Shown here piece after piece: positions 5,745 to 29,759 of a DNA stretch of 64,000 nucleotides. The position numbers and the translations under genes are program-made. The DNA is from Minisyncoccota bacterium (GTDB taxonomy: Bacteria; Patescibacteriota; Minisyncoccia; UBA6257; 2-01-FULL-56-20): the NCBI GenBank assembly GCA_035541415.1, contig DATKNI010000030.1, positions 1,621 to 65,620 on the forward strand, read 5' to 3'. Numbering within the stretch: position 1 is the stretch's first letter; each line of letters opens with the position of its first letter. The notes under the pieces were generated by a model that saw only the letters and a program-made list of their open reading frames with translations, searched no databases and was not told the origin of the DNA.

Positions 5745-7226
5745 ATGGATTCCATCTTTAATTATCCGCTCGTAACGTCGGTTCTTGCGGCATTGCTCCT
5801 GGTCGGCATCGTCGGAAAGTTTCTCAAGTTCTCGTTCGAAAAAATAACGCGGTGGTACCTCTACGTCGCGGTACTCGCCGTCGCGGTTGTGATGGATTCG
5901 ATCTTCTTCCCGTTCATCGGAGGAAAAGATTGGTTTTTCCGCTTCTCAACCGAGCTCGCGCTCATTTCTGCCGTCATGTGGTGGGCCTTTGAAGCCCGTG
6001 CCGGGGAAGTGAAGCAGCTCATCACGACAACCTACAAGAAGCCGCTCGTGATTGCGGTGACGATATTCGTTGTCGCATTCCTCCTTGCGTGCGTCTTTGC
6101 GCTCGATATCCACGCCGCATTTTGGTCAAACTTTGAGCGTGGCGAAGGCGGTTTCCAGATGATCCACTATTATCTCTTCTTCATGCTCCTCGTCATGTTT
6201 ATGAAAGATGAGGCTGATTGGAAGAATCTTTTCCGCTTCTCGCTCGTCGCGGCAGGGCTTATGATCGGCTACGGCCTCCTCGGCAACTTCATGGTTGGCG
6301 GTTTCATCGGCCCGTACGCGGGCGGGGGAGCGCCGACGACGGGATGGTTCCATGTTTTGATCGATGGCCGCTTCCAGGGATCGCTTGGCAATCCTGCCTA
6401 TGTAGCGCCGTATCTCATGTTCGCGATATTCTTTGCGGCATGGCTCTGGCTTTCCACAAAGCGCGATAAATCAAATGCCAACCTTGCGGCATGGGGTTAC
6501 AGCTTGCTCATCGTCGCATTCCTTTTCTTCTTCATGCTCACGCAAACTCGCGGCGCGCTCCTCGGCCTTGTCCTTGGAATCGTTGCGCTCCTTCTCTACT
6601 TTGCATTCACCGGCAGCCCGAGAGCAAAGAAATGGACGGCCGCCGTCGCGCTGCTGCTCATCGTCCTCGGCATCGGCGCGTATGCGGAGCGCAACAGTGC
6701 GTTCGTGCAGAAGCTGCCGGAGGGCCGCCTCCTTCAACTCAGCGCTTCCGACTACACCGCGCAGACCCGCTTCTGGGTTTGGCAGGAAGCCTGGAAAGGA
6801 TTTTTGGAACGCCCGGTTTTCGGCTGGGGTCCGGAAAACTTCACGGCGGTTTACGACAAATTCTTTGATCCGCGTTTCTATGTCCCGGGACAGAACACCG
6901 AGACGTGGTTTGACCGCGCGCACAGCGTCTACTTCGATTATCTTTCCGAGACCGGCATCGTAGGCTTGCTCGCATATCTTTCGATCTTTGCAACGTTCTT
7001 CTGGGAATTCTTCCGCCGCAGGAATCTCCACAAGCGCGCGGAGCACGGGGGAACGACCACGCTCCTTCGCGGCGCATTGCTCGCCATGCCGATCGCATAT
7101 CTCGTGCAAGGCGCGGCAATCTTCGACGTGTTCCCGATGTATCTTTGTCTCTTCACCTTCCTTGGATTTGCAACATACTATTTCTCCGTCCATCGTCGTG
7201 AGGATGTAACGGCAAACGCCAACTAG
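5745..7226 (+). CDS. O-antigen ligase (Wzy_C) family polytopic membrane protein
   Basis: 493 aa and more than 10 TM segments, with a periplasmic loop of the O-antigen ligase/polymerase type. It is the first gene of the glycan island. Confidence 0.55.
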   Translation: MDSIFNYPLVTSVLAALLLVGIVGKFLKFSFEKITRWYLYVAVLAVAVVMDSIFFPFIGGKDWFFRFSTELALISAVMWWAFEARAGEVKQLITTTYKKPLVIAVTIFVVAFLLACVFALDIHAAFWSNFERGEGGFQMIHYYLFFMLLVMFMKDEADWKNLFRFSLVAAGLMIGYGLLGNFMVGGFIGPYAGGGAPTTGWFHVLIDGRFQGSLGNPAYVAPYLMFAIFFAAWLWLSTKRDKSNANLAAWGYSLLIVAFLFFFMLTQTRGALLGLVLGIVALLLYFAFTGSPRAKKWTAAVALLLIVLGIGAYAERNSAFVQKLPEGRLLQLSASDYTAQTRFWVWQEAWKGFLERPVFGWGPENFTAVYDKFFDPRFYVPGQNTETWFDRAHSVYFDYLSETGIVGLLAYLSIFATFFWEFFRRRNLHKRAEHGGTTTLLRGALLAMPIAYLVQGAAIFDVFPMYLCLFTFLGFATYYFSVHRREDVTANAN

Positions 7227-7232
7227 AAAACC

Positions 7233-7880
7233 ATGCAAGAAGATCGCACCTATAAACAGCTCGCTGCCATCATCATCGCCGTTGTGATCCTCGGCTTTGC
7301 ATACTACGGATCGTATCTTCCGATGCGCAAAGCGCAGGCGTTCATCTCAACGCTCCAAGGGCTGCAGACGAGCCCCGCGACATCCCTTCAGGATCTCGAA
7401 ACCCGCGTGAGCGGCCCGCTCAACAAAACGTCTCCGATCGGCCAGGAGGAAATCGTCCGCAACCTCGCAAACAGCGTCCTCTCGTTCGTCCAGCAAGCAG
7501 GCACCACGACCTCGACCCAGCAGCTCGTTCAATTTCTCGACAACTACTACGATCCGATCTTGAACCGCGGCAAAGGCATGAGCTTTGGCCAGGACCTTTA
7601 TCTTGAAGGCGCCGTGAACGAAGTTGCGTTTGTACAGACCGGAGGCTCCCAATATTTGAAAGACGCGCAGCACTGGTACGAATTGGGCGAACAGCTTGGC
7701 CCGAACCGCCCGCAGCCGCTCTACGGTCTCTTTGACGTCTATCGCGCCGAAAACAATGTGACGGGCACGATTGCGGTGGCAAACAAGATTCTCACGAACT
7801 GGCCCGGCGATACCCGCATCGAAACAAGCCTCGTGCAGTTCCTGCAATCGACAACGCCGACGTCCACGAAAAAGAAATAG
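7233..7880 (+). CDS. hypothetical membrane-anchored protein
   Basis: 215 aa, a single N-terminal TM, no recognisable domain. Translationally coupled to neighbours in the glycan operon. Confidence 0.4.
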   Translation: MQEDRTYKQLAAIIIAVVILGFAYYGSYLPMRKAQAFISTLQGLQTSPATSLQDLETRVSGPLNKTSPIGQEEIVRNLANSVLSFVQQAGTTTSTQQLVQFLDNYYDPILNRGKGMSFGQDLYLEGAVNEVAFVQTGGSQYLKDAQHWYELGEQLGPNRPQPLYGLFDVYRAENNVTGTIAVANKILTNWPGDTRIETSLVQFLQSTTPTSTKKK

Positions 7881-7893
7881 TTTGCCCTAACGA

Positions 7894-8889
7894 ATGGCTC
7901 CGGGACAAAAAACAGCAATGGTGTTCGGCGCCGGCGGCTTTATCGGCGCTCACCTGGTCCGCCGCCTCAAGCGGGAAGGCTATTGGGTGCGCGGCGCCGA
8001 TTGGAAAGAGCCGGGATTCAGCAAAACGGAAGCCGACGAATTCATGGTCGGCGACCTTTCTGATCCGGACGTGATCAGGCAAACGTTCGACCGTCCTTTT
8101 GACGAACTGTACCAGCTGGCTGCCGACATGGGCGGCGCTGGTTTTGTTTTTACCGGCGATCACGACTCCGAAATCATGACGACGTCGGCTGGCATCAATG
8201 TGAATGTGGTGAAGTACGGCATCGCGCAGGGAAAAGGGCCAATCAAAAAAATATTTTATTCGTCTTCCGCGTGCATGTATCCTGCCTATAATCAGGAAGA
8301 CCCGAATAATCCAAAGTGCTCTGAGGAATCCGCCTATCCTGCGGCTCCCGACAGTGAATACGGCTGGGAAAAATTATTCAGCGAACGGTTGTATCTTGCC
8401 GCGCATCGGAACTTCGGCACCGAAATCCGCATCGCGCGGTTCCACAATATTTTCGGTCCCGAAGGGACGTGGAACAGCGGCCGCGAGAAAGCGCCCGCGG
8501 CAATGTGCCGCAAAGTTGCGGAGACTCCCGACGGAGGCGAAATCGAAATGTGGGGCGACGGCAAACAGACCCGTTCGTTTTTGTATATCGACGAATGTCT
8601 TGAAGGCGTGAGCCGCCTAATGAAGTCTGGTTTTACGGGGCCGGTGAATATCGGTTCGGAGGAAATGGTCACGATCAACCAGCTCGCCGAAATGGTGATG
8701 AAGATCGGCCGCAAAAAACTTTCTATAAAACATATTCCCGGGCCGCTCGGCGTGCGCGGGCGCAATTCCGATAACCGCCTCATCAAAGAAAAGCTCGGCT
8801 GGGCGCCGAGCACCAAGCTCGAAGACGGGCTCCGCAAGACCTACGAGTGGGTTTACGCGCAGGCGAAAGCCGCAGGAACGGCAAAATAA
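7894..8889 (+). CDS. GDP-mannose 3,5-epimerase (plant GME-type SDR)
   Basis: GAGGFIG Rossmann motif, SSSACMYP, and long colinear identity to plant GME (RFHNI.GP.GTW..GREKAPAA.CRK, GPLGVRGRNSDN.LIKEKLGWAP). Confidence 0.8.
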   Translation: MAPGQKTAMVFGAGGFIGAHLVRRLKREGYWVRGADWKEPGFSKTEADEFMVGDLSDPDVIRQTFDRPFDELYQLAADMGGAGFVFTGDHDSEIMTTSAGINVNVVKYGIAQGKGPIKKIFYSSSACMYPAYNQEDPNNPKCSEESAYPAAPDSEYGWEKLFSERLYLAAHRNFGTEIRIARFHNIFGPEGTWNSGREKAPAAMCRKVAETPDGGEIEMWGDGKQTRSFLYIDECLEGVSRLMKSGFTGPVNIGSEEMVTINQLAEMVMKIGRKKLSIKHIPGPLGVRGRNSDNRLIKEKLGWAPSTKLEDGLRKTYEWVYAQAKAAGTAK

Positions 8890-9792
8890 ATGATCACAAC
8901 GTTTTTCCGCGGCGGCCTCGGCAACCAGATGTTCCAGTACGCAGCGGGCCTCGCGCTTGCCAAACGGAACGGCGCCGATTTTTTTTGCGATATCACGCAT
9001 ATAAACGACCGTTTTCCGCGCCGAAATTTTACGTATCGCACATTCGACCTGCCGAAAGTTTTTTCGATTGAACCGCGCTACACGGCGCTTTCAAAACTTT
9101 CCCAGGCGCTTCCGATCCCGGGCGTATGGCTCGGCATCGATTTGCTTTTTATGAATATCCGCGAGGAGTTCCATCAGCTCGAAATTATTTACGAAGACAA
9201 GCGATTGGAATTTGATCCTGCGGTTCTTGCCGCAAAAGGCAACGTGATGCTTTACGGCCGTTGGGAAAATGAAAAATATTTTAAGGATACCGAAGCCGAC
9301 GTGCGCCAGGCGTTCCGGTTCCGCAATCTTTTAACGGGTGAAGCGTCGCTCGTCGCAAAACAGATCGAGTCGTCGAATTCCGTTTCCATCCACGTGCGAC
9401 GCGGCGATTACGCCGCATTCAAAAATGTCCAGCAGACGATGGGGGAGACGAATATCAATTATTATCACGATGCGTTGCGCCACATGGCGTCGCGCGTGCA
9501 AAATCCGCGATTCTTTGTTTTCTCAGACGACGTCGAGTGGTGCAAAAAGAATCTGCCCCAGGAATTTTCGTATACCTTCGCCGAACCGACGAGCGCGGGG
9601 CCGCATGCGGCATTCCACCTCGAGCTCATGTCGCGCTGCAAGCACAACATCATCGCAAACAGCACGTTCAGCTGGTGGGGCGCATGGCTCAATGCCAATC
9701 CCGGCAAAATGGTGATTGCGCCAAAGCGCTGGTATGCAGATCCGGCGCTCGCGGGGAGCGACATTGTTCCTGTGGGGTGGGAGCGGCTGTAA
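8890..9792 (+). CDS. alpha-1,2-fucosyltransferase (GT11)
   Basis: N-terminal GGLGNQMFQYA motif diagnostic for glycosyltransferase family 11. ATG overlaps the upstream stop (taaATG). Confidence 0.8.
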   Translation: MITTFFRGGLGNQMFQYAAGLALAKRNGADFFCDITHINDRFPRRNFTYRTFDLPKVFSIEPRYTALSKLSQALPIPGVWLGIDLLFMNIREEFHQLEIIYEDKRLEFDPAVLAAKGNVMLYGRWENEKYFKDTEADVRQAFRFRNLLTGEASLVAKQIESSNSVSIHVRRGDYAAFKNVQQTMGETNINYYHDALRHMASRVQNPRFFVFSDDVEWCKKNLPQEFSYTFAEPTSAGPHAAFHLELMSRCKHNIIANSTFSWWGAWLNANPGKMVIAPKRWYADPALAGSDIVPVGWERL

Positions 9793-9839: not shown

Positions 9840-9856
9840 AACCAATATTATTGGTT
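9840..9856 (+). promoter_or_regulatory. 17-bp perfect palindrome (aaccaatattattggtt) overlapping the gmd TTG/ATG start region
   Basis: Read directly; a perfect inverted repeat centred at 9848 between the GT11 gene and gmd. Confidence 0.3.
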
Positions 9857-9863
9857 GGTACCT

Positions 9864-10922
9864 ATGGCCAAAGAACCACGGAAAAAGGCAATCATTACGG
9901 GTATTACCGGGCAGGATGGGTCATATCTTGCCGACTTCCTTCTTTCAAAAGGCTACGAAGTGCACGGCATCGTCCGCCGCGCTTCGACCATGAATCGTGA
10001 GCGCATCCAGCATCTCCACCACGACCCGCACGCGTCGCGTTCGATAACGCTCCACTACGGTGATCTCGCTGACGCGAACACGATCCGCCGCCTCCTGTAC
10101 GAAGTGGAACCGGACGAAATTTATCATTTGGGCGCGCAATCGCATGTGCGCGTGTCGTTCGATGTCCCTGAATATACGGCGAACATCACCGGCCTCGGTA
10201 CGCTCCGCATTTTGGAAGCCATCAAAGATTACGAAAAAGATACCGGCAAGAAAGTCCGCTTCTACCAGGCATCGAGTTCCGAAATGTTCGGCGCCGCTCC
10301 GCCGCCGCAAAACGAAGAGACAAAGTTTTACCCGCGCAGCCCGTACGGCGCCGCGAAAGTTTTTGCCTATGATATGACCCGCAATTACCGCGAGGCGTAC
10401 GGCATCTATGCGGTCAACGGGATCCTTTTCAACCACGAGAGCCCGCGCCGCGGTGAAGCATTCGTGACCCGCAAGATCGCGATCGGCGTTGCAAAAATTG
10501 CCGCCGGCCTCGAAAAGAAACTCTACCTCGGCAATCTCGAAGCGCGCCGCGACTGGGGATATGCGCCGGAATATGTTGAGGCCATGTGGATTATGCTCCA
10601 ACAGCCGGAACCCGATGATTACGTGATTGGCACGGGCCAGTCATATAAGGTGCAGGATTACGTCAATCGTGCATTCGAAGTGGCGGGCCTCGGCGACCCA
10701 AAGCAGTACATCGGCATTGATGAACGCTATTACCGCCCGACTGAGGTCCGCTATCTTTTGGCAGACGCAACCAAAGCGAAAGAAAAATTGGGATGGCAGG
10801 CGGTAACCACATTCGATAATCTGGTGAAGATTATGGTGCGCGCCGAACTCCGCCGCCATGGCCAGCATGAACGCGCCGAAAAGATCATTGTGGAAAATCC
10901 GGTAACGTGGGTGAACGAATAA
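9864..10922 (+). CDS. gmd: GDP-mannose 4,6-dehydratase
   Basis: N-terminus [21 protein letters not shown] and SDR catalytic motifs. ATG at 9864 preferred over TTG at 9855. Confidence 0.9.
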
Positions 10923-10924
10923 TT

Positions 10925-11857
10925 ATGAAAATATTCCTTTCCGGCGGATCGGGCCATTTGGGAAGCGTGCTCGTGCCGCGTTTGCGGGCGGCAGGGCACG
11001 AAGTATCTGCCCCACGGAGCAAGGAATGCGACCTCATGGTTTTTCATGAATGTCTTTCTGCAACCAAAGGATCAGACATGATCATCCATGCCGCAGCCGT
11101 CGCCAAATCGCGCGTGGAACAGATGGCGCATCCATCGGAATCGTTCCGGCCGAACGTCTTGATGACGCTGCAGATCCTCGAAGCGGCGCGCCAAAACAAG
11201 GTAAAGAAGGTTTTGATCGTAAACTCGTTGCGGGCCTATGCCGATATGGAAGCTCCCTTTAAAGAGGAGGCCTTGCTCGAATCAAAGGTTCCGAGCATCA
11301 AGAACAAGACGTTTGGCTATTACGGCCTTTCGAAATGGGTTTCGATCCCTGCCGGGAGGGCATACGCAGCAGAGTTCGAAGACATGAAAATCCGCGAAGT
11401 CGTTTTTTCAAATCTTTACGGCCCGAATGATAAATTTGATTTCGATCCGCCCCCGGCCGTCCCTTCATTCATAAAAAAGATCGCCGCAGCGAAGAAGCAA
11501 GCGATGCCTGCGTTCGATGCGGGGAACAATCCGGGCGCGACGCTCGACCTTCTTTATGTCGACGACGCTGCGGAACTTATGATGCGGGTTGTTGAAAACT
11601 TCGGCGATGGATCATTTGACATCATCAATGGCGGCGGCGGACGCTCATACGAGCTTCGCGAGGTCGCCGATACCGTCGCTGAAGCAGTGGGCTTTAGTGG
11701 TAAAATTACTTGGAGCGGCGAAATAAAAACCCCGCCGATGTTTCTTGATACGGAGAAGGCACATTCGCAATTTGACTGGAAGCCCTCAACAACTTTATCG
11801 AAAGGGATCAACAATACCGTCGAGTGGTTCAATAAAAACTATGGCAAAACAAAATAA
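10925..11857 (+). CDS. NAD-dependent epimerase/reductase (GDP-6-deoxy-4-keto-sugar reductase, Fcl-like)
   Basis: Short-chain SDR fold (FLSGGSGHLGS), directly after gmd. ATG at 10925 follows the gmd stop. Confidence 0.55.
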   Translation: MKIFLSGGSGHLGSVLVPRLRAAGHEVSAPRSKECDLMVFHECLSATKGSDMIIHAAAVAKSRVEQMAHPSESFRPNVLMTLQILEAARQNKVKKVLIVNSLRAYADMEAPFKEEALLESKVPSIKNKTFGYYGLSKWVSIPAGRAYAAEFEDMKIREVVFSNLYGPNDKFDFDPPPAVPSFIKKIAAAKKQAMPAFDAGNNPGATLDLLYVDDAAELMMRVVENFGDGSFDIINGGGGRSYELREVADTVAEAVGFSGKITWSGEIKTPPMFLDTEKAHSQFDWKPSTTLSKGINNTVEWFNKNYGKTK

Positions 11858-13058
11858 AAACCCCGCCGGGCTCAAAGTGGGGGTTGGATCGCTTACGATC
11901 GGCCCGCTGGCAAAAAAATTGATCAACCAGACGCTCGATAAGAACCGATTGTCGTACGGCGATCTCACGATGGAATTTGAAAATAAGTTCGCCCAGCTCC
12001 ATGGCGCCCGCTTCGGCATTTTTACGGTGAGCGGGACTTCGGCGCTCCAGGTGGCGCTGAACGCGATGAAAAATATCCACGGATGGAAGGATGGCGACGA
12101 AGTGCTCGTTCCGGCAATCACATTCATAGCAACGTCGAATATCGTTATTTCAAATAACCTCAAGCCGGTTTTCGTCGATATCGATCCGCGCACCTATAAC
12201 ATCGATCCTTCGAAGATCGAGGCAAAAATAACCAAACGGACCCGCGCGATCATTCCGGTGCATCTTTTCGGCCAACCGGCAGAGATGGACACGATCATGG
12301 CGATCGCACGCAAGCGCAAGCTCAAAGTGATTGCGGACTCCTGCGAAACGATGGATGCCCATTACAAGGGCAAGCCGCTTGGGGCGTGGGGCGATATCGT
12401 TTGCTTTTCAACCTATGTTGCCCATATTCTCATCACGGGCGTTGGCGGTCTCATGATTACCAATGATCCGCGCTATGCGACGGCGATGCGGAGCCTCATG
12501 AATCATGGCCGCGACACCATCTATTACAATATCGACCAGGACGACAAACTGGGCAGCAAAAAAGCATTGTTTACGATGGTGAACCGCCGATTTTCGTTTA
12601 TTGATGTGGGCTACAGCTATCGCCTCACCGAACTCGAAGCGGCATTGGGGCTCGAGGGCCTTCAAAAGATGAAGGCGACCGTGCGCGGCCGTAAAAAGAA
12701 CGCGGCGTATTTGACGAAGGCGTTATCAAGTTTCGCCAATGACCTCCAGCTTCCTTTCACGCCAAAGGGATCTGACAACGTTTATTTTTGCCTCCCGATC
12801 GTCATCAGGAAAAATAGCAAAATAAAGAGGGAAGACCTCGTGACATTCCTCGAAGAGCGGGGCATCGAAACGCGCTACATGATGCCGCTCTTGAGCCAGC
12901 CGGTCTACCGGAAGCTTTTTCCGGGCCTCGAAAAGAAGTATCCTGTTGCGCAATGGATTGAGAAAAACGGATTTTACATCGGCTGCCATCAGGACCTTTC
13001 CATGAAAGAGCTGCGCTACGTCGCAAGCGCATTTGAAGAATTTTTTAATAAAAAATAA
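11841..13058 (+). CDS. DegT/DnrJ/EryC1/StrS-family PLP-dependent sugar aminotransferase
   Basis: About 405 aa from ATG 11841. Typical DegT fold motifs (GDEVLVPA.TF.AT, SFH..K). Confidence 0.8.
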   Translation: MAKQNKNPAGLKVGVGSLTIGPLAKKLINQTLDKNRLSYGDLTMEFENKFAQLHGARFGIFTVSGTSALQVALNAMKNIHGWKDGDEVLVPAITFIATSNIVISNNLKPVFVDIDPRTYNIDPSKIEAKITKRTRAIIPVHLFGQPAEMDTIMAIARKRKLKVIADSCETMDAHYKGKPLGAWGDIVCFSTYVAHILITGVGGLMITNDPRYATAMRSLMNHGRDTIYYNIDQDDKLGSKKALFTMVNRRFSFIDVGYSYRLTELEAALGLEGLQKMKATVRGRKKNAAYLTKALSSFANDLQLPFTPKGSDNVYFCLPIVIRKNSKIKREDLVTFLEERGIETRYMMPLLSQPVYRKLFPGLEKKYPVAQWIEKNGFYIGCHQDLSMKELRYVASAFEEFFNKK

Positions 13059-14140
13059 TGAACGGAGGAAAACCAACGCAGATTATTGTCGTCGGCCCCG
13101 ACCACCACGGCGATTGGCCGAAGGATATTTATCTCGGCATCAAGCAAGCAGGCATTGGCGCGGAGCTCATCTTCACGAATACCCTCGTGAAAGGGACCGA
13201 CAACAATACCGACATCAGCAAGCGGGCACGGCTCGAAAAGATCAAGCAGCTTTTCAGGAACTATGCGCGCCCGGTATTCAATTACGTGAAGAAGCGCCGC
13301 CGCTTGATGGCTGAGCGTTCGCTTTTTGACCAGGTGAATGCAGCACATCGGCCCGGAGAAAAGCTCCACGTGATGTTCATGTGGACGCCGCCGAGCATCG
13401 AGACGCTTAAAATTCTGAAAGAGAATAAAGATATCGTCCTGTCGCTTTGGCTCGGCGAAGCGCCGATCCGCGAGCCGCTGTGGCCGGCAACATTCCCGCA
13501 CTTCGACCACTTCATTTATGTCGACGAGGAGTGGTATCCGATCCTTGCGCCCGACGTCCAAAAGAAATCAGCCTACATCCCGCTTGCTTCCACGCCAGAG
13601 AAGTTTTTCCCGATAAAACCCGAAGAGAAGAACGATAAGTTCAAATGCGACATCGCCTTCGTGGGCTATTATCTCGACGAGCGCGCCGAAGTGCTTTCTG
13701 TAGTGAAGGATTATGACCTCCATATTTATGGATACCGTTGGGAAAACGGGTTTGAAAAGTTTCCGTGGCTCAAAGAAAAATGGAAAGGGCCTCTTTCCAA
13801 TGAAGATGCCAACCAGGCATTCAACGGCGCAAAGATCGAAATCGGCCGCGCCCTTTCGTTCGTCAAATTCGGGCATGTGGTTACCCAGCGCGTTTTCGAC
13901 ATCTCGCTTGCAGGGAATTTCCAGTTGAGCGGCTATGCTCCGAGCCTCGAAAAAATGTTCGGCGATTCCATCCCGATGTTCAATGATGCGAAAGAACTGA
14001 AAGAAAAAGTTGATTATTACTTGGCACATCCGGAAGAGCGCGAGCGGCTCGCGAAGAAGGCGCATGAAATTTGTCTTCGTGAACATACGTACGCGCATAG
14101 GGTCCAGGAGCTTATCAAAGTTTTGGGGATCACGGCGTAG
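13058..14140 (+). CDS. CgeB-family glycosyltransferase (DUF3880 + GT1-like C-terminal domain)
   Basis: 360 aa. C-terminal region resembles CgeB/spore-maturation-type GT (ERERLAKKAHE.CL.EHTY..R). Confidence 0.55.
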   Translation: MNGGKPTQIIVVGPDHHGDWPKDIYLGIKQAGIGAELIFTNTLVKGTDNNTDISKRARLEKIKQLFRNYARPVFNYVKKRRRLMAERSLFDQVNAAHRPGEKLHVMFMWTPPSIETLKILKENKDIVLSLWLGEAPIREPLWPATFPHFDHFIYVDEEWYPILAPDVQKKSAYIPLASTPEKFFPIKPEEKNDKFKCDIAFVGYYLDERAEVLSVVKDYDLHIYGYRWENGFEKFPWLKEKWKGPLSNEDANQAFNGAKIEIGRALSFVKFGHVVTQRVFDISLAGNFQLSGYAPSLEKMFGDSIPMFNDAKELKEKVDYYLAHPEERERLAKKAHEICLREHTYAHRVQELIKVLGITA

Positions 14141-14214: not shown

Positions 14215-14652
14215 TTGGACAATCTGGAAACGCTCGTAACAACCGTTGGGCCTGCAAATACCGATTCTCGACGCATCATTTGGGAGCCGGTCAATGGCGA
14301 CATGGGCAAATTCTGCCGATTGAATTTTTTCGATTGGACAGGCCAGGAAGCGCCCGGCGGTAACCATTATCACGAAAGAAACGAAGAAGTGTTTTTCGTG
14401 ACCCAAGGAGAAATCTCCAAAATGGTCATCGAGAACATCGACACCAAAGAGCGGCATCGCTGGAAGCATCTCGGCGTTGGCACCGTAATTCATATGCCGG
14501 TGCGTCACGCCCATGCACTGGTGCTTGCTCCCGGAAGCAAAATGATCGCGCTGTGCTCCCAACCGTTCGACGAGAATGACAAGGACATGCCAGTCTACAT
14601 GCTGCTCGACAAAAAAACGGGCGAAGAGATCCCGCAGGCGGTAGCCGCCTAG
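14215..14652 (+). CDS. WxcM/FdtA-like cupin (NDP-4-keto-6-deoxy-sugar 3,4-isomerase family)
   Basis: 145 aa cupin. TTG start with a strong SD; no in-frame ATG nearby. Confidence 0.45.
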   Translation: MDNLETLVTTVGPANTDSRRIIWEPVNGDMGKFCRLNFFDWTGQEAPGGNHYHERNEEVFFVTQGEISKMVIENIDTKERHRWKHLGVGTVIHMPVRHAHALVLAPGSKMIALCSQPFDENDKDMPVYMLLDKKTGEEIPQAVAA

Positions 14653-14750
14653 GGACGTGTGCGCCATGCTTCCCAAAGCATGGCGCATTTTTTAACCCTT
14701 TTATCCTTTGACTTTCGGCGCAAACTGCGCCATTCTATACCTTGTATCCA

Positions 14751-15329
14751 ATGATTCACCCCTATCTCGAAGAATCAATCGCCCTCCAGAAAAAAGTATT
14801 GGAGGATAAAGCCATCGCTGCCACGTTCGATAAAATCGTGCATGCCACGCTCGCTAGCATCAAAAACGGCGGCAAGATTTTGGTTGCCGGCAACGGCGGC
14901 AGTGCTGCCGACGCACAGCACTTCGCGGCGGAATTCGTGGCAATGTACAAAATTGACCGCCGCGCCCATCCGGCGCTTGCGCTCACGACCGACACGTCGG
15001 TTTTAACCGCGGTGAGCAACGACCATCATTTTGACCGAGTTTTCGCGCGCCAGGTTGAAGCACTTGGGACAAAAGGCGACATCCTTTTCCTCCTCACGAC
15101 AAGCGGCAATTCAAAAAATCTTTTGAACGCCGTCCATGTGGCAAAACAGCGCGGCGTGACGACGGTTGCGCTCCTTGGCAAAGGTGGCGGACCGATGAAG
15201 GGCCTCGCTGACTACGAGATCATTGTTCCTTCAGACAACGTGCCGCGCATCCAAGAGGTGCAGAAGCTCATCTTGCACAGCGTTGCAGAAGAAGTGGAGA
15301 AGCGGCATTACAACGAATATCTTTCATAG
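14751..15329 (+). CDS. gmhA: D-sedoheptulose-7-phosphate isomerase
   Basis: SIS domain with the GNGGSAADAQHFAAE motif typical of GmhA. Confidence 0.8.
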   Translation: MIHPYLEESIALQKKVLEDKAIAATFDKIVHATLASIKNGGKILVAGNGGSAADAQHFAAEFVAMYKIDRRAHPALALTTDTSVLTAVSNDHHFDRVFARQVEALGTKGDILFLLTTSGNSKNLLNAVHVAKQRGVTTVALLGKGGGPMKGLADYEIIVPSDNVPRIQEVQKLILHSVAEEVEKRHYNEYLS

Positions 15330-15345
15330 TGATATCATTATCGAT

Positions 15346-15858
15346 ATGGAAGTCGTGAAAACCAAATTGGAAGGAGTTCTGCTCATCAAGCCGGATGTGT
15401 TTGAGGATTTTCGCGGCACGTTCACGGAAACCTATAACGAGGAAGCGTATAAAAAAATCGGGATCACGGACCACTTCACCCAGGACGACATGTCGGTTTC
15501 GGTGAAGCACGTCTTGCGCGGCATCCACATGGAACCGTCGATCGCAAAAATCATTTCGTGCGGCTATGGAAAATTATATTGCGTCGTCGTAAATTGCGAC
15601 GAGAAGTCGAAAGATTTTGGAAAGTGGGATGCGTTCACGCTGACCGACCGCAATCGGTGGCAGGTGTATGTTCCGCCGAAGCATGGCATCGGACATTTGG
15701 TATTGAGCGAAATCGGCATGTTCCATTACAAGCAATCGGGATATTACGATCCGGCCGGACAAAAGAGCTATCGCCACAACGATCCGAAGTTCAAAGTATG
15801 GTGGCCGATAAAGAATCCGATTCTTTCCCAGCGCGACGAAGAGGGTCGTTATGTCTAA
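15346..15858 (+). CDS. NDP-sugar 3,5-epimerase, RmlC-like cupin
   Basis: 170 aa dTDP-4-dehydrorhamnose-3,5-epimerase fold (RG.HMEPS, K.YCVVVN). In a GDP-sugar context it may act on GDP-heptose or GDP-deoxyhexose. Confidence 0.7.
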   Translation: MEVVKTKLEGVLLIKPDVFEDFRGTFTETYNEEAYKKIGITDHFTQDDMSVSVKHVLRGIHMEPSIAKIISCGYGKLYCVVVNCDEKSKDFGKWDAFTLTDRNRWQVYVPPKHGIGHLVLSEIGMFHYKQSGYYDPAGQKSYRHNDPKFKVWWPIKNPILSQRDEEGRYV

Positions 15859-16432
15859 GCTCCTGCGCAAAACCCGTTCATTCCTGGCATTCTGTTATCT
15901 TCATTCGCCGTTCTTTTCCGAAGAGCGGTATTTCCGTTTTCCGGTGGGCATTCTCAAACACGAAATGGAGGGGAAGGCTTCTTTTGAGATCATCCACATC
16001 GGAAGCCAAAAGAGGTTCCCGCGCGCGCTTTGGGAAAAAATATGCAAGCAACGGAGAGTCGGCAATATAACGGTTGTCGAGAATTGGGAAACGTCGCGCG
16101 GCCTTCCTAAAAATTTTTATGATTTTGCGTATGTCGATGACGGCCATTCGTATTCGGCCACGCGGAGCGATATTCTGCATGCTTCCGAATTGCTGCATGA
16201 GGGCGGCGTGCTTGCCGGCGACGACCTTGAGCTTTCGATGGATGAAGTTGATGCCCGGCTCACCGAACAGTGCCGGGAGGATAATCACTGCAAAGATCCG
16301 CGGAGCGGCATGGAATATCATCCGGGCGTCACGTTTGCCATCGGGGAAATTTTGGGAAATTCGTTTTCTCGCGACCGGGCATTCTGGGCGGCGCGTCGCA
16401 TGCAAAACGGCTGGGGCAAATACGGGCAATAA
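15851..16432 (+). CDS. class I SAM-dependent O-methyltransferase (Methyltransf_24 / TylF-MycF-CmcI family)
   Basis: 193 aa; the FAYVDDGHSY motif is characteristic of the sugar O-MTase family. Confidence 0.5.
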   Translation: MSKLLRKTRSFLAFCYLHSPFFSEERYFRFPVGILKHEMEGKASFEIIHIGSQKRFPRALWEKICKQRRVGNITVVENWETSRGLPKNFYDFAYVDDGHSYSATRSDILHASELLHEGGVLAGDDLELSMDEVDARLTEQCREDNHCKDPRSGMEYHPGVTFAIGEILGNSFSRDRAFWAARRMQNGWGKYGQ

Positions 16433-16476: not shown

Positions 16477-17472
16477 CTACGGAACGACGCAATCCCAGGT
16501 TCTGATGAGCGGATCGAGCTCTTTCCAAAAGTCATCTGGAATAGGGAACGATGCGAATGCGACATTCTGTTCGACTTCTTTGCGGCTGCGACATCCGGGA
16601 ATGCAAAGCGCAAATTGCGGATGGCGGACGCACCACTGGATCGCTGCCGCGCCGAGCGGGACATCGTGGTTTTCACAAACCTTGATGAGCGTTTGGACAT
16701 AGGTGCGAACTTCCGGGGCGAAATGCCGTTGTTGGTATTTGCGCCCGGCATTGAATCCTTCCGCAAGAATGCCGCGCTCTAGCGCGGTTGCTGCGATGAG
16801 CCCGACGCTGTTTCGTTCGGCCCATGGGATAATGAACCGATTTGCGGTTTGCGAGATCAAACTCCATGAGCCGACGACAATTGCGGCATCGCACATGCCG
16901 GATGCAATATAGTGGCTTGCTGTTTCCGGATTGTCCGCTCCGACGCCGAGATAGTCGGTCATGCCATAATTGCGGACATCCAACATGGCCGTGTAAGCCC
17001 CCTTCTTACCAAAGATGAAGGACGGCCTAACGCCCATGGGGTCGTGGAGGTTGAGGATGGATACCATGCTTATGCCAAGGCGTTCGAGGCTTTGGTCGAA
17101 GCTCCGCCGCGCTGCATCGTATGAAAAATCATACGAATCGTGCGGATAGAGGTGTCCGATTTTAGTTGCAACGAATACTTGGCCTTTGATGTCGGGGCGC
17201 TCGTTAAGCGCCATGCCGATGAAGCTTTCACTCGAACCCTTGCCGTACCACGGTGCGGTGTCAATAAAACGGATGCCTGCGTCGAGTGCCGCAATGACCG
17301 CATCGACACCAAGGGTTTCGTTGGCGAGCGTTCCGAATCCCGGACCGTCCGCATATTGCGCTTGTGCCAAATTGGAGTGGGGAAGGCCGAGCGGGCCAGT
17401 ACCCAGTCCGAGAATAGGCGTTACGATGTTTGTGCCGATCAATTGCTTTTGCTGCATGCGCCTGCCTCCCAT
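16477..17472 (-). CDS. aldo/keto reductase
   Basis: 331 aa TIM-barrel AKR (GLGTG.LG, catalytic tetrad context). Confidence 0.75.
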   Translation of the reverse strand: MGGRRMQQKQLIGTNIVTPILGLGTGPLGLPHSNLAQAQYADGPGFGTLANETLGVDAVIAALDAGIRFIDTAPWYGKGSSESFIGMALNERPDIKGQVFVATKIGHLYPHDSYDFSYDAARRSFDQSLERLGISMVSILNLHDPMGVRPSFIFGKKGAYTAMLDVRNYGMTDYLGVGADNPETASHYIASGMCDAAIVVGSWSLISQTANRFIIPWAERNSVGLIAATALERGILAEGFNAGRKYQQRHFAPEVRTYVQTLIKVCENHDVPLGAAAIQWCVRHPQFALCIPGCRSRKEVEQNVAFASFPIPDDFWKELDPLIRTWDCVVP

Positions 17473-18619: not shown

Positions 18620-19348
18620 TTGAACAGTTTCTTGGAACAACTTGCCTCCGATTTGAGAAAAGCGTATATCACTCCAAACGTAAGCCGTGGGCACGATTTT
18701 TACCATATCGAACGGATGGTGGCGCGTGGTCCAGAGATCCGTGAATACCTCGTGTTCGAGATGGACGAATATGTCGCGGCGGTGTGGTTGCACAACGTTG
18801 ACCGGTGCGTTCCCCTAAAACAATTGACGGCGGAGCTCGGCGGACTGAGAAAGTGCATCCTTTCGCTTTTGGAAGGGAGCGATTTTTCTCCTGAGGCCAA
18901 AGAGAGGATCATCGACGCAGTGCTTCAGCACAGTAAAAAAGACGATGAACCAGGCGATAGCCCTCTGCTGCTCGCTCTTCGGGTGGCAGATAAGTTGGAC
19001 CGTTTTATTCCAACCCTTCTCGTGGAAGCTCCTGCGTCATGGGGGCACCTGCCGATTTTCGTGGCCCAACATCCCTTCGGTTATGATCCCACCGAGGCCG
19101 GTGAACGGGGTACCGCCGGACATCAGAGCATCTATCAGACGTATTATCGGGTGCTTGAGTGGATCCCGATGATGCCTGAATGGGCTCGGGGCCTGATCCG
19201 TCGGGACCATCTTCGGCTGTTTATCACCTTCTTGCGGCTCTTGGGAGCGCAAGCGGCAGATCAGTTCCACGTGACCAACCAGGTTGAAGATGATATTCGT
19301 CACGCTCTTGGTCCCTGCTACGAATGGGCCAATGTATACATCGCGTGA
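18620..19348 (+). CDS. hypothetical protein, possible HD-domain phosphohydrolase
   Basis: 242 aa. H...HD-like motif (GHDFYHIERM) and ALRVADKLDRF. TTG start with an AAAGGAG SD. Confidence 0.35.
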   Translation: MNSFLEQLASDLRKAYITPNVSRGHDFYHIERMVARGPEIREYLVFEMDEYVAAVWLHNVDRCVPLKQLTAELGGLRKCILSLLEGSDFSPEAKERIIDAVLQHSKKDDEPGDSPLLLALRVADKLDRFIPTLLVEAPASWGHLPIFVAQHPFGYDPTEAGERGTAGHQSIYQTYYRVLEWIPMMPEWARGLIRRDHLRLFITFLRLLGAQAADQFHVTNQVEDDIRHALGPCYEWANVYIA

Positions 19349-19433
19349 GCATTTTCAGTTTCCTGCGGGCACCTTGCATAAGGGTGCCCGTTTTTTATTC
19401 GCAAAATTTGGAAAAAGGTGTACGATAAGCCAT

Positions 19434-20384
19434 ATGTATAAAAGAATTCTTGTGACGGGTGGCAGCGCGGTTGCGGGCGATGGGTTGAAGAGCGTCGTGG
19501 CGAAAGGGGAATATGACGGACGCGAATTTATTTTCCCGACGTCAAAAGAGTGCAACATGCTCGATTTTGAAGCGACCCAAAAATTTGTCGCGGATTGGAA
19601 GCCGGATGCCATTGTGCATTTCGCGGCCATCTCCGGCGGTATCCAGCTCACTATCGACCATCCGGCAAGCGTCATGCGCGACAACATCATCATGAACTTC
19701 AACGTCGCTGAAGCGGCGCGGGTGAACGGAGTTAATAAAGTTTTAATGACGCTCTCAGCGGCAATCTATCCTTTGGACACGCCTCTCCCCATGAAAGAAG
19801 AAGATATGCATAAAGGTTATCCGCATGAGACGAATTACAGCTACGCATTTGCAAAACGTCTCATCGACCCGATGGCCAAAGCATACAAGAAAGAATATGG
19901 CATGAGCATCGTTGGCATCATCCCTGGCGCGATCATAGGCCCCAAAAGCAACTTCGATCCCAAAAGCTCTACGGCAATCCCGGCGCTCATCCGGCGATTC
20001 TTTGAAAACCGCGGGAACAACGATCCTCTCGTTGTTTGGGGCGATGGCTCACCCGTGCGCCAGTTCACCTCGGACGAAGACATCGCCCGCATTGCCATGT
20101 GGTGCATTGATAATTATGACGATCCGCAGGTTTTGAATGTGAGCACCATGGAAGATCTCTCTATCAAAGAGGCAGCTTATGTCATCGCCAAAGCGCTCGG
20201 CGTGGATTCCGGGCGCATAACATTCGACACGACAAAGCCCGCAGGAACCCACAGTCAGGGCGTGGACAATAGCAAATTCGTTTCGCTTTCACATTTCAAA
20301 TACACGCCGGCGCGTGAAACGATAACGCGGACGGCGAAATATTTTGCAGAACATTATCCCGATCCGAAAAAACTGCGGTTGTAA
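19434..20384 (+). CDS. fcl: GDP-L-fucose synthase-like reductase/epimerase (Fcl/WcaG/GER family)
   Basis: ILVTGGSA...AIVHFAAISGGIQ...NNIIMNFNV..AA...GVNK colinear with GDP-4-keto-6-deoxymannose 3,5-epimerase-4-reductases. ATG at 19434. Confidence 0.65.
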   Translation: MYKRILVTGGSAVAGDGLKSVVAKGEYDGREFIFPTSKECNMLDFEATQKFVADWKPDAIVHFAAISGGIQLTIDHPASVMRDNIIMNFNVAEAARVNGVNKVLMTLSAAIYPLDTPLPMKEEDMHKGYPHETNYSYAFAKRLIDPMAKAYKKEYGMSIVGIIPGAIIGPKSNFDPKSSTAIPALIRRFFENRGNNDPLVVWGDGSPVRQFTSDEDIARIAMWCIDNYDDPQVLNVSTMEDLSIKEAAYVIAKALGVDSGRITFDTTKPAGTHSQGVDNSKFVSLSHFKYTPARETITRTAKYFAEHYPDPKKLRL

Positions 20385-20401: not shown

Positions 20402-21382
20402 ATGAACTATCGCACCATCGGGAAAACCGGGATCACCGTTTCCGAGATCGGTTTCGGGGCGTGGGGGATCGGCGGTGAAACGCAGGACGGTGCAAATTCA
20501 TACGGCAAGACCGATGACGCAGAATCAAAGCGCGCGCTGGAGCGCGCCTTTGAACTCGGCATCACGTTCTATGACACCTCAAACATTTATGGCTACGGCC
20601 ACAGCGAGGAATTGCTCGGCGAAGTTTTTAGCAAGCGGCGCGATAAAGTCGTGATAGCGGGAAAAGCGGGATTTACGAAGCACGACGGCCCGCACGATCT
20701 CTCGCCGGCATATTTACGAAAGTGTCTTGAAGAAAGCTTGCGCCGTTTGAAAACCGATTATATCGATGTCTACCAACTTCACAGTCCGCCGATCTCGCTC
20801 ATCGAAGAACATCCGGAATGCGTTGAAGAATTGCAGAAGATGAAATCCGAAGGCAAGATCCGCGCGATCGGCATCTCGGTAAAAGGTCCGGGCGACGCTC
20901 TTCCTGCCATCGAAAAATTTGGTTTCGAATCGGTACAGGTGAATTTCAATCTGATTGACCAGCGCGCGCTCGAGACTGGCGCGTTCGAGGCGGCACGGAA
21001 GCACGGCGCAGGGATCATCGCCCGCACGCCGCTCGCGTTCGGATTTCTCACGGGCGCAATAACCGATCTTCATTTCCCGCCGCATGACCATCGTTCGGCA
21101 TGGCCGGAACGGCAATTGAAGCTGTGGGCGGATGCCCCAAATGCGTTTGCATTCCTTCGCAAAGGGAAAGACTGGACGCCCACGCAGCTTGCCCTCAAGT
21201 TCTGTATCAGTTTTAATGCCGTATCGGCGGTAATTCCCGGGATACTCCATCCAAGCGAGGCCGAGCAAAATGCAGCGGCGAGCGAGGGGGCGCTGCTTAC
21301 CAAGCAGGAGATTGATGCCGCAATTGAGGTCTATAAGACACGCGAGTTTTTCGACAGATCTGCCGTGCGCAAGGTCGCATGA
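20402..21382 (+). CDS. aldo/keto reductase
   Basis: 326 aa AKR (GFGAWGIGG, YDTSNIYGYGHSEELLG). Confidence 0.8.
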   Translation: MNYRTIGKTGITVSEIGFGAWGIGGETQDGANSYGKTDDAESKRALERAFELGITFYDTSNIYGYGHSEELLGEVFSKRRDKVVIAGKAGFTKHDGPHDLSPAYLRKCLEESLRRLKTDYIDVYQLHSPPISLIEEHPECVEELQKMKSEGKIRAIGISVKGPGDALPAIEKFGFESVQVNFNLIDQRALETGAFEAARKHGAGIIARTPLAFGFLTGAITDLHFPPHDHRSAWPERQLKLWADAPNAFAFLRKGKDWTPTQLALKFCISFNAVSAVIPGILHPSEAEQNAAASEGALLTKQEIDAAIEVYKTREFFDRSAVRKVA

Positions 21383-29685: not shown

Positions 29686-29759
29686 GGTTATTAGTGTACC
29701 GCAACCGCGGGACTTTCGCATTTTAGAATTTTTTAATCTCCGACGTGCTAGGGTTTCAT

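Follow-up and report, generated by a model that had tools for sequence, protein, structure and literature searches.

The window, the 64-kb stretch of DNA that was analysed, carried a 331-aa open reading frame at 7894-8889 and a 300-aa one at 8890-9792, both on the + strand and both opening with ATG. The TAA stop codon of the first occupied 8887-8889 and the ATG of the second began at 8890, leaving 0 bases between the two genes. The features of the surrounding glycan locus were as follows.

5745-7226, + strand: Wzy_C-domain membrane protein of the O-antigen ligase, polymerase or O-oligosaccharyltransferase family (Pfam PF04932, E = 1.3e-22)
7233-7880, + strand: orf215, a small protein whose N-terminus carries a single membrane helix (40-77% identity in every locus of the clade)
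7894-8889, + strand: predicted GDP-mannose 3,5-epimerase (GME/GM35E), 331 aa, HVM77089.1 (335 bits to 2C59, six fingerprint residues)
8890-9792, + strand: predicted GT11 glycosyltransferase, 300 aa, HVM77090.1 (PF01531, full length)
9855-10922, + strand: gmd (TIGR01472, 490.5 bits, cut-off 415)
10907-11857, + strand: Fcl-related SDR 4-ketoreductase (SDR316) without the epimerisation residues, from residue alignment
11841-13058, + strand: ColD/E1-like PMP-dependent sugar 3-dehydratase of the DegT family (His at the column of the PLP-binding Lys)
13058-14140, + strand: GT-B glycosyltransferase, Glyco_trans_1_2 (PF13524, E = 4.4e-28)
14215-14652, + strand: small cupin (weak Cupin_1, Cupin_2 and FdtA matches)
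14659-14688, + strand: intrinsic-terminator-like hairpin, a 13-bp stem with a run of T after it (strongest on the + strand in a consensus scan)
15223-15858: RmlC-like 3,5-epimerase cupin
23698-24696 and 25943-26797: further glycosyltransferases of the cluster
28177-29784: Wzx

The conserved head of the glycan locus began with the Wzy_C gene, whose position was the same in the related loci L001, L004, L161, L163, L165, L166 and L169-L171. In the loci of the clade, orf215, which had no Pfam or NCBIfam match, was always flanked by the Wzy_C gene on one side and the GDP-L-sugar gene on the other. The start of the GT-B gene and the stop of the dehydratase gene shared one base, with the junction reading AAAAATAATGAAC. 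The small cupin at 14215-14652, for which no sequence relative was found in the PDB, was the final gene upstream of the hairpin and could be a sugar epimerase or ketoisomerase. The hairpin probably marks the end of the transcription unit holding GME and GT11, in a scan whose promoter and terminator results were at chance overall and whose total of terminator-like sites was not above the shuffled expectation. Rfam and tRNA scans gave no match near the gene pair.

The original prediction had described the 331-aa product as colinear with plant GME, and this was borne out: all of the quoted motifs were found, and by sequence the product is an enzyme of the GME/GM35E type. In a phmmer search of the PDB, the protein matched Arabidopsis GME over residues 9-324 of 331 (E = 4.8e-99, 335 bits), with 52.6% identity to structure 2C59 over 308 aligned residues, and the best non-GME family was UDP-glucuronate decarboxylase (UXS) at 87 bits, followed by GalE-like enzymes at 83 and GFS at 74. 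Pfam PF01370 also matched (E = 7e-37), while NCBIfam holds no GME model and returned only sub-threshold matches to other SDR families. The glycine-rich NAD motif GAGGFIG was located at aa 12-18, followed by FYSSSACMYP at 121-130, RFHNIFGPEGTW at 182-193, GREKAPAAMCRK at 196-207 and GPLGVRGRNSDNRLIKEKLGWAP at 283-305.

The GM35E fingerprint residues have been published (PMC8787198). In the window protein they were S125, C127, Y156, K160, K199 and R290, corresponding to Arabidopsis S143, C145, Y174, K178, K217 and R306, and each of the six was the same in all 82 bacterial homologues compared (the window protein and 81 others). The Ser/Tyr-x3-Lys triad of the extended SDR family was present (S125, Y156 and K160), as was the epimerisation acid/base pair C127 and K199, at the second column of which EcGFS and HsFX carry His; R290 lay within a GVRGR motif, where the same two enzymes carry Lys. 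GDP-fucose synthases thus aligned with Cys, His and Lys at the three discriminating columns. The two objections that could be raised against a GME were both checked: the catalytic Cys and Lys, C127 and K199, were retained, and the protein grouped with GME and not with UDP-glucose-4-epimerases. Its identity as a true GDP-mannose 3,5-epimerase is therefore strongly supported at the level of sequence. Assignment as a GalE-type 4-epimerase or as Fcl was rejected on the 248-bit score gap and the Lys/Arg fingerprint.

The same enzyme had been called rare in bacteria, which did not hold: copies 69-94% identical were present in at least 590 species-representative genomes from many phyla, and close homologues formed at least 8000 clusters at 90% identity. 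Bacterial GME is already characterised and widespread. The GM35E of Methylacidiphilum fumariolicum (I0K0X9) was the first bacterial GME to be characterised, and activity was proven for a bacterial GM35E at 50.5% identity to the plant enzyme (PMC6678494). An eLife paper on the evolution of ascorbate makes no mention of prokaryotic GME.

The 300-aa product matched Pfam Glyco_transf_11 (PF01531) with E = 3.4e-35 and 122 bits against a cut-off of 23.9, over residues 1-297 of 300 and profile positions 1-294 of 298. By this match it is a full-length protein of GT11, the alpha-1,2-fucosyltransferase family, as anticipated for the gene next to GME. Its motifs were GGLGNQMFQYA (8-18), HVRRGDY (168-174), FVFSDD (209-214) and STFSWWGAWL (258-267); we take the HxRRxD nucleotide-sugar motif and the two C-terminal motifs to be the conserved fucosyltransferase motifs of GT11. 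No solved GT11 structure was detectable by sequence in the PDB. The further suggestion that enzymes of this family can use GDP-L-galactose agrees with published acceptance of that donor. No alignment column discriminated GT11s in a GME context from those in an Fcl context, and therefore no claim is made that this GT11 is adapted to a donor bearing a 6-OH.

Downstream, the original prediction of gmd plus a reductase making GDP-L-fucose was correct in that gmd and an SDR reductase follow on the same strand; the reductase, however, was not a GDP-fucose synthase. The gmd product scored 433 bits to Arabidopsis MUR1 (1n7g) and lay above the curated equivalog cut-off of TIGR01472, and its start is likely the in-frame ATG at 9864. 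SDR316 kept Tyr136 and Lys140 and carried Arg for Cys109 and Pro for His179 relative to E. coli GFS, and NF047922 gave it 120.7 bits against a cut-off of 500. Both SDR316 and SDR366 were rejected as fcl, as both catalytic residues were missing, and no Fcl with the Cys/His pair was found anywhere in the 64-kb window. True Fcl genes were present in the relatives L001, L163, L167 and L168, and the pictured order of GME, GT11, gmd and fcl describes the closest relative, L001, but not the window.

The dehydratase reading frame opened at 11745, with the probable start at the ATG at 11841. In its STYVAHILITG stretch the His aligned with His220 of E1, a column in which perosamine synthase has Lys. The protein scored higher with E1 (192 bits) than with ColD (157 bits). 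The region aligned to E1 GRDCYCAPGCDNTC held none of the E1-type [2Fe-2S] cysteines, which argues that the dehydratase is ColD-like rather than E1-like. Because the reductase carried no Cys/His pair and was followed by a ColD-like 3-dehydratase, the gmd arm would be expected to make a GDP-3,6-dideoxyhexose and not GDP-L-fucose.

The arrangement of GME directly upstream of an orthologous GT11 (50-62% identity) recurred in L001-L004, L081, L161, L165, L169, L170 and L171, and 22 more GT11 relatives lay on contigs of exactly the same length in base pairs as contigs with top GME matches. In L002/L165 (L002 being DATJLR01), L161 (GCA_964456235.1) and L170 (GCA_964409535.1), no gmd or Fcl was found within 6-10 kb on each side, leaving GME as the sole GDP-L-sugar source in view. 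At the same position in sister lineages, GME was replaced by gmd and a true Fcl (L163 and L168), by gmd alone (L166) or by gmd, ColD and Fcl (L167). The GT11 clade, which was drawn as a neighbour-joining tree without support values, always stood behind a GDP-L-sugar module (GME, gmd+fcl or gmd+ColD+fcl) at one conserved locus, and its sister loci covered three donor pathways, for L-Gal, L-Fuc and L-Col. Around generic GT11 loci (33-40% identity), GME was nearby in 0 of 51. Among long GME-containing proteins, the GT11-clade HMM matched none of 150 representatives as a GME-GT11 fusion. The protein cluster P0245 fused GME to a NodZ-like domain of the fucosyltransferase superfamily, and alignment of this domain with the GT11 profile gave a probability of 4% with the three motifs lining up, lending weak support.

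Our preferred reading, to which we assign a probability of roughly 0.6, is that GME supplies GDP-L-galactose to GT11, which L-galactosylates the surface glycan of a Paceibacterota (CPR) bacterium. In the first step, GME with bound NAD+ would oxidise C4, epimerise C5 and C3 and reduce C4 again, with epimerisation acting through Cys127 and Lys199 and with Arg290 lowering the pKa of the Cys. The products would be GDP-beta-L-galactose and a little GDP-L-gulose, at an equilibrium favouring GDP-mannose. It is very improbable that GDP-L-gulose, the C5 mono-epimer, is the relevant product and that the locus places L-gulose on its glycan. L-gulose is known from bleomycin and from Thermoplasma lipids, but it is the minor product, and the two GT11 enzymes that have been assayed did not accept L-Rha or L-Man donors, in which the hydroxyl stereochemistry is altered; moreover, sister loci pair the GT11 clade with L-Fuc and L-Col, both of which are L-galacto at C2 and C4.

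Under the L-galactose reading, GT11 would consume GDP-L-Gal in the second step and so pull the GME equilibrium forward; we infer its use of this donor from the gene linkage and from the published promiscuity. As an inverting enzyme of the fucosyltransferase family, GT11 would add alpha-linked L-galactose to the growing lipid-linked glycan; from what other members of GT11 do, the bond is presumed to be alpha-1,2 to a galactoside. In the third step, gmd, the ColD-like 3-dehydratase and the epimerase-less reductase would form a separate GDP-3,6-dideoxyhexose arm, which is supported by residue checks, and the dideoxy sugar would probably be used by the GT-B glycosyltransferase at 13058-14140. The glycan would then be flipped by Wzx and handled by the Wzy_C protein.

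Several observations count against this reading. The genome portion examined was 64 kb of a 72.5-kb contig, and the remainder of the genome could hold an fcl or fkp gene. The GT11 alignment, in which no column set GME-context apart from Fcl-context enzymes, likewise gave no sign of adaptation to a 6-OH donor. The window itself encodes the RmlC-like cupin, another small cupin and two Fcl-like reductases that lack the epimerisation residues; in concert with gmd, and with or without the dehydratase, these proteins could provide a split route to GDP-L-fucose or GDP-L-colitose. In bacteria at large, GME was immediately followed by a GT4-type gene in 10 of 56 cases and by GT11 in 6 of 56, making GT4-type enzymes the commonest downstream neighbours of bacterial GME generally. 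In the closest relative, L001, where GME and GT11 are followed by gmd and a true Fcl, the single GT11 could use L-Fuc, as the true Fcl is present; L011 and L021 also have both.

Some of these observations favour a reading that we consider unlikely though still substantial, in which GT11 acts as a conventional fucosyl- or colitosyl-transferase. It would take GDP-activated L-fucose or L-colitose, 6-deoxy-L-sugars derived from the gmd product through a putative split pathway of cupin epimerase and epimerase-less reductase, joined for colitose by the ColD-like dehydratase, and GDP-L-Gal would go to another glycosyltransferase (13058-14140, 23698-24696 or 25943-26797). The gmd gene lies right after GT11 in a unit that also holds the 3-dehydratase, the reductase and a cupin, and the RmlC-like 3,5-epimerase scored 97 bits to GDP-sugar epimerases of C. 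jejuni, whose partners are separate reductases. In relatives, however, that cupin accompanies heptose genes (SIS and HAD) and not gmd, and the dehydratase gene in the window overlaps the start of the GT-B gene and not GT11. An orthologous GT11 stands behind the canonical colitose set in L167, and WbgN, itself a GT11 enzyme, is a natural colitosyltransferase. Against this, it is GME and not gmd that stays joined to GT11 across the clade, even where no gmd is in view.

The heptose genes bear on a further reading. GmhA, an HddA-like kinase, GmhB and a sugar-1-phosphate nucleotidyltransferase were all encoded in the window, and GDP-D-glycero-alpha-D-manno-heptose, also made by the cluster, is a C6-extended analogue of GDP-mannose on which the GME homologue might act to give an L-configured heptose. 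We regard this as hardly credible, as the protein shares 52.6% identity with plant GME and retains the active site. Heptose genes were absent from most of 80 bacterial GME loci (SIS in 5, GHMP kinase in 6), and L161 and L165 keep the GME-GT11 pair with no heptose genes in view.

Taken across loci, the GT11 clade might represent a natural, dedicated lineage of alpha-L-galactosyltransferases that arose from fucosyl- or colitosyl-transferases as GME replaced gmd+fcl or gmd+ColD+fcl at one fixed locus in Paceibacterota, a proposal that we put at slightly less than even odds. If it is true, L-galactose, which is hardly known in bacterial glycans, caps a conserved portion of the surface glycan in these ultra-small bacteria, and the locus offers a ready-made, co-evolved GME and glycosyltransferase pair for enzymatic L-galactosylation. 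It would also mean that the genetic setting of a GT11 makes GDP-L-galactose its intended donor and not an artificial substrate; in the literature searched, where two papers named both GDP-L-galactose and O-antigen, no bacterial case of such a GT11 transferase was described. Bacterial GMEs with a natural partner transferase are what a review of GM35E calls for as a means of making L-galactosides (PMC8787198). The partner can shift the unfavourable equilibrium of the epimerase forward.

The swapping of donor pathways (L-Gal, L-Fuc and L-Col) before one orthologous transferase fits the published idea that substrate availability, and not enzyme specificity, decides which L-sugar is placed on a glycan (PMC11987014). 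The findings make a small addition to the almost unknown surface chemistry of the CPR and leave the understanding of the GME and GT11 families, both already known, unchanged.

Among known systems, Arabidopsis GME (2C59, 2C54, 2C5A and 2C5E) has the same GxxGxxG motif, Ser/Tyr/Lys triad, Cys145/Lys217 pair and Arg306 as the window enzyme. The plant protein is 377 aa long against 331, with N- and C-terminal extensions that the window protein lacks, and serves the ascorbate pathway, whereas the window enzyme is encoded in a glycan operon. The M. fumariolicum GM35E is likewise bacterial, self-sufficient and about 50% identical to the plant enzyme; its gene adjoins a glycosyltransferase and a methyltransferase, and the enzyme was proposed to act in the synthesis of a cell-surface glycan (PMC6678494). 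That organism belongs to the Verrucomicrobia, in contrast to the CPR organism of the window, and the neighbouring glycosyltransferase was not reported as GT11 (PMC6678494).

GDP-L-fucose synthase (Fcl/GMER/WcaG) was the nearest solved relative of both SDR316 (87 bits) and SDR366 (209 bits) and shares their Tyr-x3-Lys motif, but its Cys/His pair is replaced by Arg/Pro in SDR316 and Ala/Thr in SDR366, and the two reached 120 and 193 bits against the NCBIfam GDP-L-fucose synthase cut-off of 500. The GDP-L-colitose pathway (Gmd, ColD and ColC) resembles the window in combining gmd, a His-for-Lys DegT enzyme without Fe-S cysteines and an Fcl-related reductase; ColC, however, performs the C5 epimerisation, and the window reductase is without the Cys/His pair needed for it. 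Finally, the alpha-1,2-colitosyltransferase WbgN of E. coli O55 and human FUT2 belong to the same Pfam/CAZy family as the window GT11. For these two enzymes L-Gal is a non-natural substrate, whereas for the window GT11 we propose it as the natural donor.

The two open reading frames of the original prediction were recovered at exactly its coordinates, and every motif it had quoted was found in the two proteins. The TAA stop codon of the GME gene directly abuts the ATG of the GT11 gene, with no base between. Short minus-strand ORFs overlapping the pair (e.g., 8334-8837 and 8617-9000) were rejected as spurious because the plus-strand products show strong homology, and Rfam and tRNA scans of the GME/GT11 region gave no match. 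The gene order was iPGM (minus strand), RNase Y, Wzy_C, orf215, GME, GT11, gmd, reductase, dehydratase, GT-B, and small cupin.

Features of the glycan locus from Wzy_C to the hairpin
5745-7226, plus, Wzy_C gene, first in the head of the glycan locus
7233-7880, plus, orf215, 215 aa, single N-terminal membrane helix, no family match
7894-8889, plus, GME, 331 aa
8890-9792, plus, GT11, 300 aa
9855-10922, plus, gmd (TIGR01472, 490 bits versus a cut-off of 415; MUR1, 433 bits)
10907-11857, plus, SDR reductase, distant relative of GDP-L-fucose synthase (Fcl) (1e6u, 87 bits; NF047922, 120 bits versus a cut-off of 500)
11841 (probable start) to 13058, plus, DegT-family dehydratase, His at the PLP-binding Lys column
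14215-14652, plus, small cupin, before the hairpin
14659-14688, plus, terminator-like hairpin, the strongest on this strand, 3' of the small cupin

The window organism is a CPR bacterium; the database proteins identical to its own are assigned to Candidatus Paceibacterota, and the closest relative among the matches listed (94% GME identity; locus L001) has a complete 827,485-bp chromosome. In every locus of the Paceibacterota clade, orf215 lies between Wzy_C and a GDP-L-sugar gene, at 40-77% identity; it is clearly part of this locus's conserved head. The Wzy_C-domain protein opens this locus in an organism without an outer membrane and may act as a polymerase or O-oligosaccharyltransferase instead of an O-antigen ligase. 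The 62-base GT11-gmd spacer contains an AT-rich perfect palindrome, AACCAATA-T-TATTGGTT, at 9840-9856, overlapping the TTG at 9855, which might serve as a binding site for a protein or form a weak hairpin. G+C drops from about 0.56 to 0.48-0.53 over the glycan-gene stretch; such a dip is usual in variable glycan clusters.

A phmmer comparison of the 331-aa protein with all PDB sequences placed four Arabidopsis GME entries and a second GME on top (335-322 bits, E = 5e-99 to 5e-95, residues 9-324), versus 87 bits for UDP-glucuronate decarboxylase, about 83 for GalE-like proteins, and about 74 for GDP-fucose synthase; with 335 against about 83 bits, it does not group with GalE-type epimerases. 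Identity to Arabidopsis GME was 52.6% over 308 aligned positions. In the GM35E fingerprint of Beerens et al., a Cys serves as the acid and a Lys as the base, with an Arg acidifying the Cys; in GDP-fucose synthase, the Lys and Arg positions are occupied by His and Lys, respectively, and GalE is without the acid/base pair (PMC8787198). Residues S125, C127, Y156, K160, K199, and R290 of the window protein occupy the columns of Arabidopsis S143, C145, Y174, K178, K217, and R306, so that the catalytic Cys (C127) and Lys (K199) are both kept, and the same six residues occurred in 82 of 82 bacterial homologues aligned; E. coli and human GDP-fucose synthases showed Cys/His/Lys at the three discriminating columns. 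The PDB scores and fingerprint residues upheld the prediction of a plant-type GME, an identity we regard as very likely from the protein's sequence, which agrees with GM35E in every feature that can be tested at that level. NCBIfam holds no GME model, and HVM77089.1, identical to the 331-aa protein, is therefore named only “NAD-dependent epimerase/dehydratase family protein” by NCBI.

The expectation that GME would be rare in bacteria did not hold. A word-indexed search yielded at least 8000 candidates, with the best 120 clusters all at least 71% identical to the window GME; a one-genome-per-species scan yielded at least 590 confirmed GME loci, the best 80 at 69-94% identity; and 933 representatives (50% clustering) were found at E <= 1e-30. 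The loci from the species scan belonged to Patescibacteria/CPR, Bacteroidota, Ignavibacteriota, Acidobacteriota, Planctomycetota, Chloroflexota, Nitrospirota, Alphaproteobacteria, Omnitrophica, and others. In 2019, 18 bacterial UniProt sequences were annotated as GM35E (PMC6678494), so the apparent rarity reflects annotation and not distribution. The immediate downstream neighbor of GME was mostly a glycan gene (56 bacterial loci: GT4-type in 10, GT11 in 6, priming transferase in 5, flippase in 5). In one homologue, P0245, a GME (63% identical) is fused to a C-terminal NodZ-like fucosyltransferase-superfamily domain (Pfam 31 bits versus a gathering threshold of 28.3), which aligns with GT11 at the three motifs but with a profile-profile probability of only 4%; this fusion lends weak support to a GME-transferase link. 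Other homologues are fused to an N-terminal UDP-glucose/GDP-mannose dehydrogenase (P0248, P0309) or to 340-450-aa domains without a Pfam match (P0246, P0249, P0250, P0281, P0336). Four more (P0266, P0285, P0340, P0387) contain inteins with Hint and LAGLIDADG domains, inserted either beside the catalytic Cys (about window residue 126-127) or close to the catalytic Tyr (about residue 154).

That the next gene encodes a GT11 enzyme was confirmed by an end-to-end match to Pfam Glyco_transf_11 (122 bits), and with its three fucosyltransferase motifs complete, the 300-aa protein is a GT11 member by sequence. The identical HVM77090.1 is named “alpha-1,2-fucosyltransferase” by NCBI, and no solved structure was detectable for it by sequence search. 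Among 80 bacterial GME loci (the best 80 of at least 590), 13 had a GT11 gene no more than 10 kb from GME. It lay directly 3' on the same strand in close relatives (L001-L004), in Nomurabacteria (L007), and in L011, and was separated by a single gene in L021. The window GT11 had at least 120 relatives at 50-62% identity, 22 of them on contigs equal to the base pair in size to contigs carrying top GME matches.

Nine further clade members were looked up, picked without reference to GME. GME was directly 5' of GT11 in five (L161, L165, L169, L170, L171); the other four were without GME and had gmd instead, arranged as gmd-fcl-MT-GT11 (L163), gmd-fcl-HicB-GT11 (L168), gmd-GT11 (L166), and gmd-x-ColD-type dehydratase-fcl-GT11 (L167). 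The catalytic Cys and His were present in the fcl products of L163, L167, and L168, as was the dehydratase His in the DegT protein of L167. The head RNase Y-Wzy_C-orf215 was the same in seven of the nine (L161, L163, L165, L166, L169, L170, L171); in L167, Wzy_C and orf215 lie at the edge of the available sequence, and L168 lies in a different neighborhood. The contrast with 80 generic GT11 loci (33-40% identity), taken as background, was clear: GME adjoined GT11 only in L081, the sole locus of the window's clade (56% identity). Among background loci of at least 5 kb, GME was adjacent in 0/51, and gmd was present in 5/51 and fcl in 3/51. In a neighbor-joining tree, built without support values, the GME-context enzymes form one derived group and the GT11s from gmd/fcl contexts a basal grade, and no alignment column separating the two was found. 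Neither gmd nor fcl was visible within 6-10 kb at L002/L165, L161, and L170, and the sole candidate donor over that distance is GDP-L-Gal.

Throughout the loci sampled, the transferase of this clade always stands behind a predicted module for an L-galacto-series GDP-beta-L-sugar. The module is interchangeable, with L-Gal (GME), L-Fuc (gmd and fcl), or L-Col (gmd, ColD, and fcl) as predicted products. Two GT11 enzymes tested elsewhere both rejected L-Rha and L-Man, and the authors held that natural glycan sequence is dictated by substrate availability (PMC11987014); WbgN, the E. coli O55 colitosyltransferase, tolerates GDP-fucose well (PMC12723683). Because the GME equilibrium favors GDP-mannose (PMC8787198, PMC6678494), tight coupling of GME to a consuming transferase makes mechanistic sense. 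In the window, GME would supply GDP-L-Gal to the adjoining GT11, which would add L-Gal, an explanation to which we assign a probability of about 0.6. Against it, the nearest relative, L001, carries GME-GT11-gmd followed by a true Fcl, and L011 and L021 also hold both GME and GDP-fucose pathways. The original prediction of L-Gal, L-Fuc, or both stands for these three genomes. In the window, fcl is replaced by a reductase and a dehydratase, and the following GT-B gene has changed (36% identity to L001). GT11 itself (L001 11037-11936 versus window 8890-9792) is 60% identical, compared with 94% for GME, 78% for gmd, and 90% for RNase Y, which suggests that it evolves fast or was exchanged between lineages by recombination.

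Both families are already described, and a bacterial GME has been characterized; the newness, which is modest, lies in a GME-GT11 pair conserved at a fixed locus in Paceibacterota and in donor-module replacement upstream of one orthologous transferase. Within the literature searchable here, no paper on a natural bacterial GT11 L-galactosyltransferase was found, and the finding gains interest if the window enzyme is one.

The downstream arm had been read as gmd plus a reductase making GDP-L-fucose. The gmd is genuine, but in the reductase, Arg and Pro replace Cys109 and His179, respectively, with Tyr136 and Lys140 kept. In GDP-fucose synthase, Cys109 and His179 carry out 3,5-epimerization; their absence and the sub-cut-off score rule the reductase out as such an enzyme. 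The DegT-family protein has His in the His220 column of the E1 3-dehydrase and is without the E1 iron-sulfur cysteines, so it is by sequence a ColD-like PMP-dependent 3-dehydratase, and the three enzymes together would yield a GDP-3,6-dideoxyhexose. Across the 64 kb of genome that the donor-gene survey covers, tblastn with true Fcl sequences matched only two Fcl-like genes, both without the Cys/His pair, and GME, so this stretch has no bifunctional Fcl. An L-configured 6-deoxy GDP-sugar (L-Fuc or L-Col) made by a split epimerase and reductase is a possible alternative donor, because two cupins are present, the RmlC-like one at 15223-15858 and the small one at 14215-14652.

Features beyond the hairpin
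14742-15329, 22677-23684, 26824-27393, and 27461-28180, plus, GDP-heptose supply set
15223-15858, RmlC-like 3,5-epimerase cupin (RmlC, 112 bits; C. jejuni GDP-heptose epimerases, 97 bits)
15851-16432 and 24722-25891 (minus), O-methyltransferases
16477-17472, minus, and 20402-21382, plus, aldo-keto reductases
19284-20384, plus, second Fcl-like SDR (human GFS, 209 bits; Ala/Thr at two catalytic columns)
21431-22042, plus, E1-alpha-like PP domain, 203 aa
22046-22588, plus, E1-beta/transketolase-like Pyr domain, 180 aa

This stretch also encodes two GT2 enzymes and a Wzx flippase. The GDP-heptose set comprises GmhA, an HddA-like kinase, GmhB phosphatase, and a sugar-1-phosphate nucleotidyltransferase, in a CPR bacterium without LPS. 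The PP and Pyr domains form a minimal split thiamine-diphosphate enzyme inside the glycan cluster, flanked by the two aldo-keto reductases and the second Fcl-like reductase; a Chloroflexi GME locus (L045) has homologues at 53-55% identity, and L167 has a transketolase-like pair. The E1-like pair AviB1/AviB2 attaches two-carbon branches to sugars in avilamycin, and on this precedent, a branched-chain sugar is a possible product of the window cluster. By its predicted enzymes, the downstream arm would work like the colitose pathway but differs in the last enzyme, in which the Cys/His pair is missing. The two Fcl-like SDRs without this pair (10907-11857 and 19284-20384) co-occur with the separate cupin epimerases, an arrangement that recalls the split epimerase and reductase of Campylobacter GDP-heptose pathways.
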